Source: Gallionellaceae bacterium (GTDB lineage: Bacteria > Pseudomonadota > Gammaproteobacteria > Burkholderiales > Gallionellaceae). Taken from it: a stretch of 64,000 nucleotides of DNA. Made by a program: the position numbers and the translations under genes. The notes under the pieces were generated by a model, which made no database searches, was not told the DNA's origin, and worked only from the letters and a program-made list of their open reading frames with translations. Shown here piece by piece: positions 4,283 through 48,050 of the stretch. The DNA lies in assembly GCA_027448945.1 (NCBI GenBank), contig DAIDMQ010000037.1:49791-113790 (forward strand). The letters are read 5' to 3'. Numbering within the stretch: the stretch's first letter is position 1; each line of letters begins with the position of its first letter.

Positions 4283-5638
4283 TTAACTGCCTGCGATGGT
4301 CATCCCTTCCACCAAGATAGAACCGGATTGGCGTGACCCTTGCACCAGCACATCATTGCCGACTGCCACGATGTTGAGGTACATGTCTTTGAGATTTCCC
4401 GCGATGGTAATTTCCTCGACGGGATATTGTATCTCACCATTCTCGACCCAGAAGCCTGCCGCTCCGCGTGAATAATCGCCGGTGACCCCGTTAACGCCGC
4501 TCCCCAGCAATTCGGTGACAAGCAAGCCGCGCGACATGGTTTTAAGCAAGCCGGCGAAATCCAATTCGCCAGATTGCAATATCAGGTTATGACTACCGCC
4601 CGCATTCCCGGTAGTTTGCAATCCCAACTTGCGTGCCGAATAGCTGCCCAAGAAGTAATCCTGCAACACGCCGTTTTCCACGATGCTGCGCGTCCGTGTG
4701 CGCACACCCTCGTCGTCGAAAGGACTGGAAGCCAAGCCTTTGCGGATATCCGGCACATCGCGGATATTGATGTGTGGCGCGAAAATCTGCTCGCCCTTCT
4801 TGTCCAGCAGGAAGGAGGACTTGCGATACAAACTGCCGCCGCTGACCGCGCCGACGAAATGTCCCAACAGTCCCGATGCAATAGGCGCCTCGAACAATAC
4901 CGGCACTTGCATAGTCGCGATCTGGCGCGCATTCAATCTGCGCACACTGCGTTCCGCTGCGATGCGTCCCACCTGCTCCGCATTCAACAGATCACGGGCA
5001 TCACGGGCCACCGTATACCAGTAATCGCGCTCCATACCGTCTTCCTGCCCGGCGATCACGGCACAACTCAGACTGTGACGCGAAGTTGGGAATCCACCCA
5101 TAAAACCCAAACTGTTAGCCGTCACGAATAAGGCTTCGTGCAGGTTTACCGTTGCGCCCTCGGAATTACTCACGCGCTTATCGGCGTCTAGTGCAGCGCG
5201 CTCGCAACGCTGCGCCAGTGTGATTGCATCTTCCACGGGCAATTCCCAAGGATGGTAAAGATCCAGATCGGTGCTTTCTCGTGCCAGCAAGGCTTCGTCC
5301 GGCAATCCGGAACAATCATCCTTGGCGGTATAGCGGGCGATAGACAGCGCGGCGTCCACGGTATCGTGGACAGCCTGCGCCGAAAAATCCGAAGTGCTGG
5401 CATTGCCGCGCTTTTGGCCTATATAGACTGTGATGCCCAGACCTTTGTCGCGGTTGTACTCTATGGTCTCGACCTCACCCTGACGCACAGTGACCGCCTG
5501 ACCGAAGCCCACAGACACATCCACCGCAGATGCAGTCGCACCGCGTTTTTTCGCGTAGTCCAACATTCCCTGTGCTATCTCGCGTAAATGTTGATCTGTA
5601 TGAGAAAAGCGTGTGACGGTAGTAGCTATATCATTCAT
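4283..5638 (-). CDS. pmbA: Metalloprotease PmbA/TldE
   Basis: FDDEGV, TGNAGG, TGDYSRGAAGFWVENGEI..PVEEITIAGNL motifs; divergent from yjgA as in the conserved arrangement. Confidence 0.96.
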   Translation of the reverse strand: MNDIATTVTRFSHTDQHLREIAQGMLDYAKKRGATASAVDVSVGFGQAVTVRQGEVETIEYNRDKGLGITVYIGQKRGNASTSDFSAQAVHDTVDAALSIARYTAKDDCSGLPDEALLARESTDLDLYHPWELPVEDAITLAQRCERAALDADKRVSNSEGATVNLHEALFVTANSLGFMGGFPTSRHSLSCAVIAGQEDGMERDYWYTVARDARDLLNAEQVGRIAAERSVRRLNARQIATMQVPVLFEAPIASGLLGHFVGAVSGGSLYRKSSFLLDKKGEQIFAPHINIRDVPDIRKGLASSPFDDEGVRTRTRSIVENGVLQDYFLGSYSARKLGLQTTGNAGGSHNLILQSGELDFAGLLKTMSRGLLVTELLGSGVNGVTGDYSRGAAGFWVENGEIQYPVEEITIAGNLKDMYLNIVAVGNDVLVQGSRQSGSILVEGMTIAGS

Positions 5639-36869: not shown

Positions 36870-36996
36870 TTAAGGTTCAGCGAACCCCCACCAAGGGCGG
36901 GAATCACACAAAAATTTGTCGCGAATTCTACACTAGATAGGGGACAGGATGCGGGATGCAGAATTCAGTTAAAAGCGGGGTAGCGACATTCAACGT

Positions 36997-37070
36997 TCCT
37001 GAATCCTGAATCCTGAATCCTGAATCCTGAATCCTGAATCCTGAATCCTGAATCCTGAATCCTGAATCCT
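36997..37070 (+). repeat. Perfect heptamer tandem repeat (TCCTGAA)x10 + TCCT
   Basis: Ten exact units counted from 36997 to 37066. The repeat runs into the stop codon of the PCu(A)C gene and has an inverted degenerate arm CAGGATG-CGGGATG-CAGAATT at 36945-36965. Confidence 0.97.
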
Positions 37071-42167: not shown

Positions 42168-42463
42168 CCGACAAACCCAAAACATTACCGTCAACCAATG
42201 CGTTGACCGATAGCTTGATCGAATATCCCTGCGAATTCCCGCTCAAGATATTCGGTCAGCAAAACGCGGGTTTCGCGCAAGCCGTACTTGAGGTCGTGAC
42301 CAAACACGATCCCGGTTTTGCGGCTGCCAGCATGGAGATGCGCGCCAGTAAAACGGCCCGCTACGTCAGCTTGACCTGCACCATACGCGCCACCTCACGC
42401 ACCCAACTCGACGCTGTCTATCAGGAGTTATGCGACCACCCCATGGTGGTGATGGTGTTGTGA
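42164..42463 (+). CDS. ybeD: YbeD/DUF493 family protein
   Basis: [33 protein letters not shown]; conserved position before lipB. Confidence 0.9.
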
Positions 42464-43164
42464 TGCAAAACGGCGTGTTGGAAGTGGAAAGTGAGAAGTG
42501 GGAAGCAAGCGCCAATCACATCGCTCCGCCCGCCCTTCACACCCTAGGACTCGTCGATTACCAAACCACTTGGGACGCGATGAAGCGTTTCACCGTGGCG
42601 CGCAGCGCCGACACGCGCGATGAAATCTGGCTGCTGCAACACCCGCCCACTTACACCCAAGGCTTGGCTGGCCTGCCCGAACACCTGCTGAATCCCACCA
42701 ACATTCCCGTGGTGAAAATAGATAGAGGCGGACAAATCACCTATCACGGCCCGGGGCAGATCGTTGCCTATTTATTGCTCGACATGCGGCGCTGGAAGAT
42801 AGGCGTGCGCGAACTGGTGACCGTGCTGGAAAATGCGGTGATCGATTTGTTAGCCGAATTCGGTGTCGCAGCCCGCAACCGCGTCGATGCGCCCGGCGTG
42901 TATGTGAACGGCGCAAAAATCGCCGCACTCGGATTGAAAATTAAAAATGGTCGCTGCTATCACGGCCTGTCGTTCAACGTGGACATGGACTTAACGCCAT
43001 TTAACAACATCAACCCCTGCGGCTACCAAGGCCTGCGCATCACTCAAGCTTGCGCCCTCGGCATCACCGCCAACATCAATGAACTGCAAGCGCAACTCGC
43101 ACAGAACTTGATACACGGTTTACAGCGGCATTACGCGGGTCAACAAAATTTCGTTCACGATTGA
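42463..43164 (+). CDS. lipB: Octanoyltransferase LipB
   Basis: [40 protein letters not shown]. Confidence 0.96.
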
Positions 43165-43177
43165 ACGGGTAAACACT

Positions 43178-46100
43178 ATGCAGCTTTTTCATCAGCCATT
43201 ATTTAATCCGCGCTTAATTGCTAAACGCTGTTCGCTCGCACCTACACCCGCTGCGCACAAACAAATTTTGCACGACTGGGCACAGACCATACGCAATGGC
43301 AGCATCACAAAAAAAGGCAACAAAGAAGCTGCGATACGCAGCGCGTTCATACAAAAATTCTTTATCGAAATTTTGGGTTATGTGCCCTTCGCCAGCGGTG
43401 CAGCACAAACGATTGCAGAAGAGCATCGAGCAGGCAAAGGCAGTGCCGATGCCGCATTAGGATTTTTTGCTAACGGTAAACCTCAAATCATCGCGCCCGT
43501 TGAGCTTAAAGGCGCGGACACCACCAACCTTGATGCCATCATGCCGGGGCGAAATAAATCTCCAGTACAGCAAGCATGGGAATACGCGGCAGATATTCAA
43601 GGACGAAAATTTATTGTGCTGTCGAATATGGTGGAAATCCGCCTGTATTCCTATGGACAAACACGACAAATTTATGAGCGTTTCGACATCGTTGCATTGG
43701 CTGATAGCGATTCGGAGTATCAACGCTTTCGCTTTTTACTCAGTGCAGAAAATTTGCTCGGTGGTCATACAGAAAAACTGCTGGTTGAAAGTGCTAGTGC
43801 CGAAAAAGAAATCACTCAGCAGCTGTATAGCGATTACAAAGCATGGCGCGTTCAGCTCATCCTCGCGCTTGCGCAGCACAATGAATTACCGCTGACCGAC
43901 ATCATCACCCACGCGCAAACTATCCTTGATCGCATGTTGTTTATCGCCTTCGCCGAAGACCGCGATTTACTGCCTGCGAAAACCATTGAGCAAGCCTACG
44001 TCCAGCGTAATCCTTACAATCCGCAACCGATTTGGGAAAACTTCAAAGGCTTATTTTATGCCGTGGACAAAGGCAATGCCGCCCTTGGCATTCCCGCTTA
44101 CAACGGTGGATTATTCGCCGCCAACACGCTTAAAGATTCGCTCAAGTTGCCCGACTCGGCGTGTGAAATTTTTAAGCAGTTAGGCGAATATGACTTTGCT
44201 TCAGAAGTCGGCGTAGCGGTGTTAGGTCACATTTTTGAACAGTCCGTTGCCGACCTTGAAGAGTTGCGCGAAATAACCGACCTCGACGCATTCAAACTTA
44301 AAGCGGATGAAGTCATCGTCACCAAACAAGCGCGCGGTGTATCGGGAAAGCGCAAACAAAATGGCGTGGTTTACACCCCAGATGACATCACCGCTTTCAT
44401 CGTTGAACAAACTTTGGGCGGCTATCTTGAACAACAACGCAATGCCTTATTAGCGAACTATCTAGATAGCAAAAAGCCACTGGATGAACAAGGCAATCTC
44501 AACTATCGCGTATCCAGCAAAGCCGAAAAAACCAACTACGGAAAACTCAAGCTGATTGATGCGACTCGCCTGACTGAATATCTGTTTTGGCACGCATGGC
44601 GTGAAACATTGCAGCACATCAAAGTGGTCGATCCCGCTTGTGGTTCTGGCGCGTTTCTCATTGCCGCATTTGATTTTCTGGATGCCGAATATCGCAATGT
44701 CAACGAGCAACTGCAAGCCATCACTGGCACGCGCGATTTGTTCGACATCAACCGTGAAATTCTTAACGGCAATTTGTACGGCGTGGACTTAAATCCCGAG
44801 TCCATCGAAATCACCAAACTCTCGTTGTGGCTCAAAACTGCGCAACACGGCAAACCGCTGCAATCTCTGGAAGCCAATCTGCGCGTGGGCAACAGCCTCA
44901 TCCAAGGACAAGAATTTTCTGAGCGTGCTTTCGATTGGCAATTCGCTTTTCCTGATGTTTTCAAAGCAGGCGGCTTCGACGTGGTGCTGGGCAATCCGCC
45001 TTATGTTCGGATGGAACGCCTCAAGCTCATCAAACCTTATTTAGAAAAACACTACGCTGTCGCCAGCGACCGCGCCGACCTCTACTGCTACTTTTTTGAG
45101 CTGGGCGTGCGCTTGCTCAAAGCAGGCGGGCGCATGGGCTACATCTCCTCGTCCACTTTTTTCAAAACAGGCTCGGGCGAACCGTTGCGTCGCTATTTAT
45201 TAGAAAAGACGCAACTGCTCACACTGGTTGATTTTGGCGACTTGCAAGTGTTTGAAGGGGTGACCACCTATCCCGCGATTATTGTGTTGGAGAAAAATGA
45301 CGCACGCGCTGCGAGCAATGAAAATGTAGGAGCTGGCTTGCCTGCGACAGCGACCCTCGCGGCTGAGGCCGCTCCTACAACACCTAGTCTCATCCAATTT
45401 CTCGCGCTCACCACTAAACTCGAAATCTCGCTATCCGAACATTTTTTAGCGCACACACAAACCATGCCGCAAAGCCAATTGGGGCGCGATAGTTGGCGGC
45501 TGGAAAACGACATCGCCGCGCGCCTGCACAGCAAGCTCACGCGAGGACATCCCACCTTAAAGCAAATCTATGGCTCGCCCTTATATGGAATTAAAACGGG
45601 TCTCAATGAAGCCTTCGTAATCGACCGTGCCACACGTGATGCGCTGATTGCACAAGACCCAAAATCTGCCGCTTTGCTCAAGCCTTTTCTCGAAGGCAAA
45701 GACCTGAAAAAATGGCGCATCGAACCGCAAGATTTGTATCTGATTTACATCCCGAAAGGCGTGCTCAACATTGCGGACTATCCGGCGATTCAAGCACACC
45801 TATTGCCCTACCGAGAACAATTAGAAAAGCGCGCAACTAAGCAAGCGTGGTTTGAATTACAACAAGCCCAAACGGCATACATGCCACTTTATGATGGCCC
45901 TAAAATTTCTTGGGGACGATTTCAACCAGAACCCTTGTACTCATTTGACCAAAAAGGGTTTTATGGAAATGATAATGTTTACACCATCCCAAACACGGGA
46001 TATTTTGAGCTCGCACTACTAAACAGTAACGTAACTTGGTTTATCACAAAGGCAATTTGTCCTCCTGTCAGCGGCGGCTTTTATCCAGTTCGAGGTAGTT

Positions 46101-46507
46101 TTGCTGAAGCATTTCCGATCCCCACCGCGAGTAATACCGAAAAATCTCACCTCGCCGCGCTTGCGCAGCAATGCCAACAAACCGCCGAAGCACGGCGTGA
46201 ATTACAAACCGCTTTCCGTAATCGCATTCCCGACCTAGCGATAGGCGGTAAAGCCCGTCTCACACAAAAGCTAGAACGCTGGTGGGAGCTTGATTTTGCT
46301 GCCTTCCGTACCGAGGTCAAGAAGCAATTCAAGCAGGACATCCCGCTGGCAGAGCGCAACGAATGGGAACGCTACTTCACCACCGAACGCGATAAAATCA
46401 CCGCGCTTAACGCAACCATTGCGCAACATGAAATGCACATCAATCAAGCGGTGTACGCATTGTTCCATCTGAGCAGTGAAGAAATTGCCTTATTGGAGTA
46501 CGCATGA
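43178..46507 (+). CDS. Single-chain Type IIG (Eco57I/TaqI-like) restriction-modification enzyme, N6-adenine methyltransferase plus endonuclease
   Basis: N-terminal PD-(D/E)xK pattern (ADAAL...VELK...QAWEY); GVVYTP; VDPACGSGAFL (motif I); FDVVLGNPPY (motif IV); ADLYCYF; TaqI-C-like specificity region. Confidence 0.9.
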   Translation: MQLFHQPLFNPRLIAKRCSLAPTPAAHKQILHDWAQTIRNGSITKKGNKEAAIRSAFIQKFFIEILGYVPFASGAAQTIAEEHRAGKGSADAALGFFANGKPQIIAPVELKGADTTNLDAIMPGRNKSPVQQAWEYAADIQGRKFIVLSNMVEIRLYSYGQTRQIYERFDIVALADSDSEYQRFRFLLSAENLLGGHTEKLLVESASAEKEITQQLYSDYKAWRVQLILALAQHNELPLTDIITHAQTILDRMLFIAFAEDRDLLPAKTIEQAYVQRNPYNPQPIWENFKGLFYAVDKGNAALGIPAYNGGLFAANTLKDSLKLPDSACEIFKQLGEYDFASEVGVAVLGHIFEQSVADLEELREITDLDAFKLKADEVIVTKQARGVSGKRKQNGVVYTPDDITAFIVEQTLGGYLEQQRNALLANYLDSKKPLDEQGNLNYRVSSKAEKTNYGKLKLIDATRLTEYLFWHAWRETLQHIKVVDPACGSGAFLIAAFDFLDAEYRNVNEQLQAITGTRDLFDINREILNGNLYGVDLNPESIEITKLSLWLKTAQHGKPLQSLEANLRVGNSLIQGQEFSERAFDWQFAFPDVFKAGGFDVVLGNPPYVRMERLKLIKPYLEKHYAVASDRADLYCYFFELGVRLLKAGGRMGYISSSTFFKTGSGEPLRRYLLEKTQLLTLVDFGDLQVFEGVTTYPAIIVLEKNDARAASNENVGAGLPATATLAAEAAPTTPSLIQFLALTTKLEISLSEHFLAHTQTMPQSQLGRDSWRLENDIAARLHSKLTRGHPTLKQIYGSPLYGIKTGLNEAFVIDRATRDALIAQDPKSAALLKPFLEGKDLKKWRIEPQDLYLIYIPKGVLNIADYPAIQAHLLPYREQLEKRATKQAWFELQQAQTAYMPLYDGPKISWGRFQPEPLYSFDQKGFYGNDNVYTIPNTGYFELALLNSNVTWFITKAICPPVSGGFYPVRGSFAEAFPIPTASNTEKSHLAALAQQCQQTAEARRELQTAFRNRIPDLAIGGKARLTQKLERWWELDFAAFRTEVKKQFKQDIPLAERNEWERYFTTERDKITALNATIAQHEMHINQAVYALFHLSSEEIALLEYA
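45325..45379. mobile_element. REP doublet (REPIN) embedded in frame in the RM gene
   Basis: GTAGGAGCTGGCTTGCCTGCGA ... TCGCGGCTGAGGCCGCTCCTAC; translates as [18 protein letters not shown]. Confidence 0.9.
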
Positions 46508-47031
46508 AAATCGGGTTTGTAGGAGCGGCCTCAGCCGCGAAATCGATTGTCGCGGCTGAAGCCTCTCCTACACATACAGCACATGGGCATCATGCTTTAC
46601 GCAAATGCCGCGTATCCATTGCAAACGGAATTTATCTCGTCACAGCGACAACGTTAGACCGTCAAAAATTCTTTTTAAATTTTGATGCGGCTTGTTCTGC
46701 TGCACGATGCTTGGAGGACGCAAAATGGCTGGGCGATGCAAAAATGCTAGCGTGGGTGTTGATGCCAAATCATTTGCATGGCTTATTGCAACTGGGTGAA
46801 CGCGATGATTTGAGTGCGGTGGTGCGCCGCATAAAGTCGGCGAGTGCGCAGCAAGTTAATCGCGTATTAAGTAAAACAGGCGCGGTATGGGCAAGCGCGT
46901 TTCACGATCACGCTTTGCGTGATGAAGATGATTTGCAGAATGTGGCGCGCTATATGGTGGCGAATCCATTACGTGCGGGTCTGGTAACACGAATTGGCGA
47001 CTATCCATTTTGGAATGCGGTATGGCTGTAG
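46504..47031 (+). CDS. REP-associated tyrosine transposase (RAYT, TnpA-REP, IS200/IS605 HUH superfamily)
   Basis: [16 protein letters not shown] (HUH), W...[20 protein letters not shown]...DYP.W (catalytic Tyr); flanked by REP doublets. Confidence 0.92.
46518..46572. mobile_element. REP doublet at the RAYT 5' end
   Basis: GTAGGAGCGGCCTCAGCCGCGA-aatcgattg-TCGCGGCTGAAGCCTCTCCTAC. Confidence 0.92.
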
Positions 47032-47081
47032 GAGCTGGCTTGCCTGCGACTGCACACTTCGCGGCTGAAGCCGCTCCTACA
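47027..47081. mobile_element. REP doublet at the RAYT 3' end
   Basis: GTAGGAGCTGGCTTGCCTGCGA-ctgcacact-TCGCGGCTGAAGCCGCTCCTAC; its GTAG contains the RAYT stop codon TAG (47029-47031). Confidence 0.92.
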
Positions 47082-47111
47082 AAATATAAATTTAACAAGA
47101 AAGAAATTAAC

Positions 47112-48050
47112 ATGAGCAACATCGAAAACAAACAAACGGGTGCGGCAAAAACGGCGCGCAATCCGATCAAAATCGTGCCGCTACAGGAACGCTTGCGCAA
47201 GCCCGACTGGATACGTGTGAAGTCGGGCAGCGGCACGGGCTATCACGATGTAAAGCGATTGTTGCGCGAACACAGTTTGGTCACGGTGTGCGAGGAAGCA
47301 TCCTGCCCCAACATCGGCGAGTGTTTTAGCAAAGGCACGGCGACGTTTATGATTTTGGGCGATGTGTGCACACGCCGCTGCCCGTTCTGCGATGTGGCGC
47401 ACGGCAAGCCGCTGCAGCCCGATGCCAACGAGCCGGCCAATCTGGCGCGCTCTATCGGCTTGCTGAATTTAAAATATGTGGTCATCACCAGCGTGGATAG
47501 AGATGATTTGCGCGACGGCGGGGCGCAGCATTTTGTCGATTGCCTGAGTGCGATACGCGCCAGCTCGCCCAACACCCGTTTGGAGATTTTGATACCCGAT
47601 TTTCGCGGTCGATTAGACGAGGCGCTGGATGCGCTGGCGATCAGTTTGCCCGATGTGCTCAACCACAATCTGGAAACCGTGCCGCGCTTGTACAAGCTGG
47701 CGCGCCCGGGTGCAGACTACGCGCATTCGCTCAAGCTGCTGAAAGATTTCAAGGCGCGCTTCCCCGATATTCCGACCAAATCCGGTGTGATGCTGGGCTT
47801 GGGCGAAACCGACGACGAGGTGCTGCAAGTGATGCGCGACCTGCGCGCCCACGATGTGAACATGCTCACCATCGGACAATACTTGCAACCGTCCGACGGC
47901 CATCTGCCGGTGCTGCGCTATGTGCCGCTGGAGACGTTCACGATGTTTGAGCAAGCCGCAAAAGAAATGGGCTTTGACCACGCCGCCTGCGGGCCGATGG
48001 TGCGGTCAAGCTACTACGCGGACGAGCAGGCGCATCTGGCGGGTGTGTAA
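47112..48050 (+). CDS. lipA: Lipoyl synthase
   Basis: [13 protein letters not shown] and CTRRCPFC cluster motifs, NHNLETV, VRSSY. Start at MSNIENK. Confidence 0.97.

Follow-up and report, generated by a model that had tools for sequence, protein, structure and literature searches.

A REP doublet read in frame in a putative type IIG restriction-modification gene, at a loop where relatives carry other palindromic repeats

We analysed a 64,000-nucleotide stretch of the genome of a Gallionellaceae bacterium (GenBank assembly GCA_027448945.1, contig DAIDMQ010000037.1, positions 49,791 to 113,790; called the window below), in which a doublet of repetitive extragenic palindromic (REP) sequences, or REPIN, lies at positions 45325-45379 inside a gene for a predicted restriction-modification (RM) enzyme. 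The next gene encodes a REP-associated tyrosine transposase (RAYT). The reading that we favour, and consider likely to be right, is that the doublet is a passenger that inserted into a permissive loop of this RM family, probably through the action of the neighbouring RAYT. The features concerned are collected in Table 1.

The element reads TGTAGGAGCTGGCTTGCCTGCGA-CAGCGACCC-TCGCGGCTGAGGCCGCTCCTACA, two inverted 22-nt REP arms around a 9-nt spacer. Both arms start with GTAGGAGC and each contains a GC-rich stem of 5-6 bp. These are the features of a GTAG-type REPIN, namely an imperfect palindrome with a 5' GTAG, present as an inverted doublet that folds as one hairpin, with a calculated energy of -16.9 kcal/mol (z = -3.4) as single-stranded DNA and -30.4 kcal/mol as RNA. 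A degenerate half-site pattern matched the 64-kb window six times, against 0.07 matches expected by chance. The matches, at 45326, 45357(-), 46519, 46550(-), 47028 and 47059(-), make up three doublets, at 45325, 46518 and 47027. The left arm of the intragenic doublet is identical to the left arm of the 47027 doublet and its right arm to the left arm of the 46518 doublet, at 22/22 positions in each case. Over the whole element, the nearest copy is the doublet at 47027-47081, with 49/55 positions identical (89%).

The doublet lies wholly within a real gene and is read through. Positions 45326-45379 form exactly 18 codons, residues 717-734 of the 1109-residue ORF (open reading frame), with no stop codon and no frameshift. 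The GTA-GGA frame is the only one that is free of stops in all three REPIN copies and in both orientations. For the 45325 copy alone, three of the six frames are open, and an open reading is therefore not a rare outcome. An earlier note on this DNA, made by inspection of the letters, had placed a REPIN within the RM ORF without a break in the frame, and had called it almost identical to the one at 47027-47081. The half-site scan and the translation bear out both the position and the unbroken 18 codons; the near identity holds for the arms but not for the element as a whole, because the spacer agrees at only about 4/9 positions.

Table 1. Positions of the features discussed, in window coordinates.
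Feature	Position	Strand	Basis
lipB, left flank of the variable junction	42430..43164	+	tblastn synteny with congeners
Putative type IIG RM gene, MmeI-like architecture, 1109 aa	43178..46507	+	Pfam, AlphaFold2 model, Foldseek, motifs
Disordered, length-variable loop, residues 712-733	45311..45376	+	AlphaFold2 model (pLDDT <50); alignment of 120 homologues
Intragenic GTAG-type REPIN (REP doublet)	45325..45379	+	sequence, half-site scan, translation, hairpin fold
Left REP arm, variant A, GTAGGAGCTGGCTTGCCTGCGA	45326..45347	+	22/22 identical to 47028-47049
REPIN spacer, CAGCGACCC	45348..45356	+	alignment; differs from the spacers of the 46518 and 47027 REPINs
Right REP arm, variant B, GTAGGAGCGGCCTCAGCCGCGA (minus-strand reading)	45357..45378	-	22/22 identical to 46519-46540
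Putative exchanged cassette of the recognition domain, residues ~895-1000	45860..46177	+	amino-acid and same-codon identity profiles
RAYT gene	46504..47031	+	NCBIfam REP_Tyr_transpos NF047646, 143.3 bits (cut-off 80); Pfam Y1_Tnp
5' REPIN, flanking and overlapping the RAYT ORF	46518..46572	+	sequence, half-site scan, alignment, fold
3' REPIN flanking the RAYT; closest relative of the intragenic copy (49/55)	47027..47081	+	half-site scan, alignment, fold
lipA, right flank of the variable junction	47112..48050	+	synteny with congeners

From its domains, motifs and predicted structure, we read the host gene as encoding a single-chain type IIG RM enzyme of MmeI-like architecture that lies outside the Pfam MmeI family. 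Its Pfam matches are to Eco57I (152.8 bits), N6_Mtase (69.4 bits), MmeI_Mtase and TaqI_C, the last at residues 835-981 with 31.9 bits against a cut-off of 26.5. Motifs I and IV of a gamma-class methyltransferase are present (DPACGSG at residue 485 and NPPY at 606), identifying an N6-adenine methyltransferase of the Eco57I type, and a target-recognition domain lies at the C-terminus. The N-terminal region contains a D...ELK nuclease motif, with ELKG at residue 109; D91, E109 and K111 are nearly invariant in the family and a β-sheet is predicted at 79-110, while Pfam MmeI_N was not detected. An AlphaFold2 model built on 60 homologues has a mean predicted local distance difference test score (pLDDT) of 85 and a predicted template modelling score (pTM) of 0.75. 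Foldseek matched the model to CamA and M.BseCI and, over the whole chain, to MmeI (5hr4). In the alignment of homologues, the window protein retains every one of the more than 100 residues that are invariant in the family. BREX PglX was considered and rejected: the best NCBIfam score was 116 bits against a cut-off of 500, and the neighbours of the gene are lipB and the RAYT.

Within the model, pLDDT falls below 50 in only two segments, residues 385-394 and 712-733. The insert maps to the second of these, a surface loop joining the paired β-strands 699-706 and 738-743, the last β-hairpin of the methyltransferase domain. In sequence terms the loop follows the Pfam methyltransferase match, which ends at 710, and precedes TaqI_C, which starts at 835, and this is roughly the position between methyltransferase core and specificity region that the earlier note had given. 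In about 100 of 120 aligned homologues the loop is short, with 9-10 residues between VL[DE][KR] and IRFL, for example VLDRCDAPDPDAPIRFL, and the peptide encoded by the REP (VGAGLPA) occurs in none of the 120. The peptide is thus absent from homologues without the repeat DNA, and in the model it occupies a surface loop outside which the fold is kept. The earlier note had expected the peptide to be missing from most homologues and to fall in a loop of a structural model, and had proposed a tolerated linker insertion; the alignment and the model agree with it on each point, and the intact ORF and retained invariant residues are as a tolerated insertion would have them.

The same loop carries repeats of other kinds in relatives. 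In several of the aligned homologues the loop is long, and its peptide has the look of translated repeats. The repeats were read from the DNA of each homologue locus, and we regard this locus-by-locus extraction of the loop as the reliable source; a palindrome scan that demands perfect 11-bp stems overlooks the window's own, imperfect REPIN. The loop of L002 holds a doublet of GTAGGGGCGCGATTCATCGCGCCC, in frame, in a full-length gene. In L003 and L005 there is a CGTC-type doublet, GTCATTCCCGC..GCGGGAATCCAG, with a spacer of about 70 nt, and L056 has a related single hairpin; all are in frame. The loops of L004, L009, L001, L105, L257 and L258 contain from one to four hairpins of the form CCCTCTCCC..GGGAGAGGG, those of L103 and L104 contain doublets of GTAGGG[CG]GGATAAGC..GCATCC[GA]CC, and that of L106 contains an inverted pair of CCCCCCGAACGGGGGG, again all in frame; the genes at all these loci are full-length. 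Across the RM family, at least six palindromic repeat families are therefore found in loops of the 712-733 type. Three of the families were tested for dispersal in their host genomes, and all three are dispersed: GTAGGGGCGCGATTCATCGCGCCC with 30 and 38 half-sites, the CGTC type with 39 and 97 half-sites, and CCCTCTCCC with 12-27 palindromes. The loop inserts therefore belong to host-specific repeat populations.

The RM family is present in 8 of 151 sampled members of the window's genus, at 68-77% identity and in varied chromosomal places, and all eight have a palindromic repeat in the RM loop. In a tree calculated with the loop masked, inserts occur in 8/9 members of the window's clade and come from four families, and further inserted sequences are scattered elsewhere. 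The position of the insert varies by 1-10 codons after VLEK. As a control, we considered 38 other REP elements, from two of the families in two genomes: 0-1 of the 38 lie in an open frame that extends for 60 codons or more to either side. To our knowledge, no dedicated transposase has been described for CGTC-type REPs or for simple hairpins. It therefore seems that repeats moved by several routes end up in one loop, and this speaks for a filter by selection rather than for the target preference of a single enzyme.

Two minor sites also take repeat-like inserts in frame, at about residue 595 (P0003, P0004 and P0009) and at about residue 1023 (P0005 and P0007). The insert at ~595, SPRPQAGEGQGE, is located just before the NPPY strand. 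The site at ~1023 is in a loop between two C-terminal helices, and in L002 (9117-9191) it has two palindromes of the CCCTCTCCC type. The part of the window's own loop that precedes the REPIN (45293-45325) was compared with repeats of the CCCTCTCCC type and with the REPs of congeners; local alignments were no better than those of shuffled sequences (p = 0.02-0.7, best match 7 nt), and it is therefore not established that the REPIN landed beside an older repeat.

We note two further features of the RM family. A subset of its members (P0019, P0023, P0027, P0039, P0043, P0045, P0048 and others) has a C-terminal extension of about 260 residues with a Fic domain (PF02661). The metagenomic homologues L103, L105, L256 and L257 lie among toxin-antitoxin pairs (FitA/PIN, BrnT/BrnA, ParE/antitoxin and PhdYeFM/ParE), surroundings that are typical of a defence island.

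The RAYT has the HUH motif HLH at residue 90 and the catalytic tyrosine motif RYMVANP at residue 149. Its only in-frame ATG overlaps the stop codon of the RM gene (ATGA), and its own stop codon is the TAG within the GTAG of the 3' REP. There being no other in-frame start, the 5' REPIN (46518) would be translated as well, as 18 residues; the RAYT homologues L306, L310, L312 and L322 align into this N-terminal stretch. The two REPINs that flank the RAYT, 1.1 kb downstream of the intragenic copy, share its arm variants, as is expected of a RAYT and its cognate REPs. Together with the intragenic copy they are the only doublets in the whole 2.45-Mb genome, and all three are within 1.8 kb on contig C37, so that in this genome the family is not dispersed. 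Some congeners, and other genera, do have it at dispersed sites, and the repeat families that are abundant in congeners are virtually absent here. A second, distant Y1 gene of the IS200/RAYT-like kind is found on contig C17 (884-1306), 29% identical to the RAYT, with no family-I REPs elsewhere in the genome. The commonest 14-mers of the genome belong to tandem repeats of heptamers, (GAATCCT)n and (GGGATTC)n (compare window 36945-37070), and not to REPs.

The history of the locus can be followed by synteny. In most congeners dacA, dat, ybeD, lipB and lipA are contiguous, with only a few bases from lipB to lipA. In others the junction holds varied cargo: in G007 (L251) an MmeI-family gene cut by an insertion sequence or transposase-like ORF, together with small genes; in G008 (L254) a full MmeI-family gene and a PIN gene; in G013 (L252) a C5 methylase and an HpaII endonuclease. 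The gene order indicates that the lipB|lipA junction (window 43165-47111) is an integration hot spot for restriction systems in the genus. A RAYT flanked by REPs is found at the same junction in at least two other Gallionella genomes. In L311, a metagenome-assembled genome of Gallionella, the order is lipB, REP, RAYT (68% identical; 4940-5545), REP, lipA, with no RM gene; in L307 it is lipB, a methylase-like gene, REPINs, RAYT (72%; 4860-5530), REP, lipA. In G014 (L126) a decayed REP lies just upstream of the old lipA leader, in the first 120 bases past lipB. The RAYTs have diverged (68-72% identity) about as much as dacA and dat (66-71%), as expected under vertical descent. The RAYT is thus resident at lipB|lipA, and its REPtron is old there. 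The RM gene has a G+C content at third codon positions (GC3) of 0.51. In the core genes that precede it, dacA, dat and lipB, the value is 0.63-0.67, and in rnb, downstream, it is 0.74. This lower GC3 and the varying cargo of the junction show that the RM gene is a newcomer beside the resident REPtron, acquired horizontally.

We propose the following course of events. A horizontally acquired type IIG RM gene landed between lipB and the resident RAYT. Afterwards, most likely, a REPIN built of the two REP variants that flank the RAYT entered the RM coding sequence by RAYT-dependent copying of single-stranded REP hairpins. Its persistence would be owed to its place, in the GTA-GGA frame and at the end of the β-hairpin that closes the methyltransferase domain; transcribed with the gene, it would be translated as an 18-residue disordered loop rich in Ala, Gly and Pro, with the fold and the catalytic motifs predicted to remain intact. 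On this reading the loop is the main permissive, length-variable site of the family, and in relatives it has been filled repeatedly by whichever palindromic repeats each host carries. We envisage a ratchet, in which an expanded loop would be a larger neutral target, where old repeats decay and new ones arrive. The arms match both local variants, the RAYT is resident and the RM gene a newcomer, and the genome is poor in REPs; taken together, this favours local copying after arrival of the RM gene.

The earlier note had seen in the doublet a sign of recent RAYT activity on the neighbouring gene. That the neighbouring RAYT acted on the RM gene is plausible from the sequence, given that the arms are the RAYT-flanking variants, that there are no other copies and that the RAYT is resident. 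Because the spacer differs from those of both local REPINs, however, the sequence neither marks the insertion as recent nor points to a master copy.

Several observations weigh against our reading. The spacer shares only about 4/9 bases with the local REPINs and matches neither; the insert is therefore not a fresh copy of an extant master, and our reading does not account for perfect arms beside a divergent spacer. There is no close REP-free allele with which to date the insertion: the nearest homologues are about 76% identical in DNA, and within the genus the best match to the window's RM gene has 77% amino-acid identity and is itself inserted. Activity of this RAYT, and of the enzyme with its insert, is a prediction. 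Finally, tolerance alone is not obviously enough to account for how often the loop is occupied, when 0-1 of 38 control REPs lie deep in a frame and the loop is filled in 8/8 congeners; and the second disordered loop, at 385-394, has no repeat inserts in the aligned homologues.

The doublet could already have been in the RM gene when that gene was transferred, having inserted in a donor where that REP family was more numerous, in which case its likeness to the local REPs would reflect shared family. We think this unlikely, though not negligible. The RM gene is clearly acquired, as judged from its GC3 and from the variable cargo of the junction, and the spacer is unlike that of either local REPIN. 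REP variants of this type are also widespread: arm A is matched over its full 22 nt in several Pseudomonas genomes and arm B at one Novilysobacter locus, with B-like arms in congeners G008 and G024. Moreover, no RAYT was found within about 6 kb at 87 other RM loci, so that all other homologues gained their loop repeats without a RAYT at that distance. Against transfer of the insert together with the gene, the arms agree at 22/22 positions with the two variants that flank this genome's RAYT, whereas the REPs flanking its nearest relatives (60-72% identity) have other stems. In addition, in every other case checked the family of the loop repeat is dispersed in the current host, which fits insertion after arrival. 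A search for a donor of the REPIN found none: none of the 120 loci that hold exact arm 22-mers has a related RAYT, and the nearest RAYTs are at most 72% identical, with other stems.

A second alternative is that the loop is a true hot spot, at which insertion is either selected (an mRNA hairpin or a longer loop damping a self-toxic type IIG enzyme after transfer) or targeted (hairpin DNA being drawn there). We hold this to be distinctly unlikely, even though it would account for the convergence of at least six repeat families, and of 8/8 congeners, on one loop when 37-38 of the 38 control REPs are not intragenic, and for the second disordered loop (385-394) never being hit. The RNA hairpin is stable at -30.4 kcal/mol, and Di Nocera et al. 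(2013, PMC3733652) found REP-decorated proteins to be enriched among DNA-handling enzymes and offered no explanation. However, most homologues outside the Gallionella-type clade have a loop of 9-10 residues, so an insert is not needed; the position of the insert within the loop, its length, its sequence and its family all vary; any damping of expression or activity is a prediction; and the minor sites at ~595 and ~1023 also take repeats, as simple tolerance predicts. In its boldest form the idea would be that unrelated hairpin DNA (GTAG REPINs, CGTC REPs and simple GC hairpins) is drawn to the loop, or that insertion there is selected to tune a self-toxic RM system after transfer, and further that a REPIN population may be seen here, in a genome poor in REPs, at its very first step, the one dispersed REPIN of the resident RAYT having landed in the gene next door; we give that version a small chance of being right.

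It is rather improbable that the insertion inactivated the enzyme and that the gene is an early pseudogene, open by chance. RM genes are expendable and prone to decay, the insert falls in the terminal hairpin of the catalytic domain, and the enzyme is only predicted to be active. The frame of 1109 codons is nevertheless intact, all of the 100 and more invariant residues are kept and, the loop apart, the fold is predicted with confidence. A dozen homologues whose inserts are comparable are likewise full-length and open.

The earlier note had also suggested that the intragenic REPIN, with the two downstream, provides a RAYT-cleavable or recombinogenic site for exchange of the specificity domain or for excision. 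For the pairs L105/L001 and L258/L257 we followed two measures along the gene, amino-acid identity and, where the residue is the same, how often the codon is too. Close homologues with 95% identity over the rest of the gene share 30-45% in the segment at residues ~895-1000, synonymous sites included, and agree well again beyond it. Both measures are 70-90% along the gene and fall to 37-45% only in this segment, after which same-codon identity returns to about 80%; the same pattern of identity is seen between the window's gene and its nearest relatives. The profiles indicate that the recognition domain has had its core, residues ~895-1000, replaced as a cassette, through recombination in conserved flanks. 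Across the loop the synonymous measure is flat (66% to 71% in one pair and 75% to 83% in the other), no recombination breakpoint was found at the loop in these close pairs, and the cassette starts about 160 codons (~480 bp) downstream of the end of the insert (residue 734). The REPIN is therefore not at a recombination joint. It is true that three similar elements, direct or inverted with respect to one another, lie within 1.8 kb, and that residues 742-790, just past the loop, vary more than the methyltransferase core, but a role in exchange or excision is very improbable, given that same-codon identity steps from 70-86% to 37-45% and back to ~80% at the cassette and is unchanged across the loop, that the cassette boundaries are in conserved coding sequence and not in repeats, that none of 87 other RM loci has a RAYT within about 6 kb, and that excision from 45325 to 46518 or 47027 would take out the entire recognition domain, with loss of the enzyme. 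We read the insert as a passenger and found nothing to support a part for it in specificity-domain exchange.

REPs that insert in frame illustrate how a protein loop can be lengthened by selfish palindromes while its gene survives. The present family offers an unusually clean natural series, with one enzyme family, one loop, at least six repeat families and uninserted relatives for comparison, and makes it possible to test why the same protein loops are hit repeatedly and whether inserts change the activity or expression of RM enzymes. A genome with a RAYT and three REPINs in all, of which one lies in the adjacent gene, is also a minimal system in which to ask whether a RAYT favours sites close to its own gene. 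In annotation, a peptide such as VGAGLPA...AAEAAPT within a large protein signals repeat DNA rather than a conserved motif.

Among known systems, the host enzyme resembles the MmeI-type type IIL/IIG enzymes (5hr4) in combining a putative nuclease, helical spacer, gamma-class N6-adenine methyltransferase and recognition domain in one chain, with a fold match to MmeI of TM 0.66 relative to the target (TM, template modelling score). Its methyltransferase and recognition-domain part matches CamA and M.BseCI (7lni, 7qw5). Unlike MmeI, it has no detected Pfam MmeI_N, MmeI_TRD or MmeI_C domain; its methyltransferase is of the Eco57I type and its recognition domain of the TaqI_C type.

REPtrons, or REPIN-RAYT systems, consist of a single-copy RAYT and inverted 5'-GTAG REPs, the doublet being the presumed mobile unit (Nunvar 2010; Bertels and Rainey 2011; Ton-Hoang 2012). 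The window's system is alike in that its RAYT is flanked by inverted GTAG REPs and has a conserved chromosomal position in related genomes. It differs in its minimal population, two flanking doublets and a single dispersed copy that is intragenic in the neighbouring gene, and in that both ends of the RAYT ORF, start and stop, run into REP sequence.

Rickettsia palindromic elements (RPE; Ogata et al. 2000, cited in PMC3733652 and PMC3184786) are palindromic repeats that lie in frame in protein-coding genes, which remain functional, and add a surface segment to the protein, as here. RPE are longer or of CGTC type, abundant within the genes of an obligate intracellular bacterium and not known to have an associated RAYT, whereas the window has a single GTAG REPIN with a RAYT adjacent, in a betaproteobacterium of the free-living iron-oxidiser type.

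The closest precedent is the work of Di Nocera, De Gregorio and Rocco (2013, BMC Genomics 14:522, PMC3733652), who described GTAG- and CGTC-tagged REPs inside ORFs as 'REP-decorated proteins'. More than half of their intragenic REPs are dimers encoding 20-30 residues, and many are in genes for DNA replication or repair; their supplementary table includes a REP in an 'N-6 DNA methylase' of O. terrae, and in two Xanthomonas species recB has different REPs at roughly one position. The authors proposed neutral insertion in flexible loops. The element described here is alike in being a GTAG REP dimer that is wholly within an ORF, in frame, in a DNA-handling protein. It is unlike those cases in that the host is a type IIG RM enzyme adjoining a RAYT, that the whole REPIN population of the genome is three copies, and that one loop has received at least six repeat families, including those of all eight RM-bearing congeners, a recurrence far denser than was reported there. 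REP dimers in frame within genes are thus already known; what is new here is the host gene, a type IIG RM gene beside a RAYT, the minimal REPIN population, and the density of recurrence at one loop.

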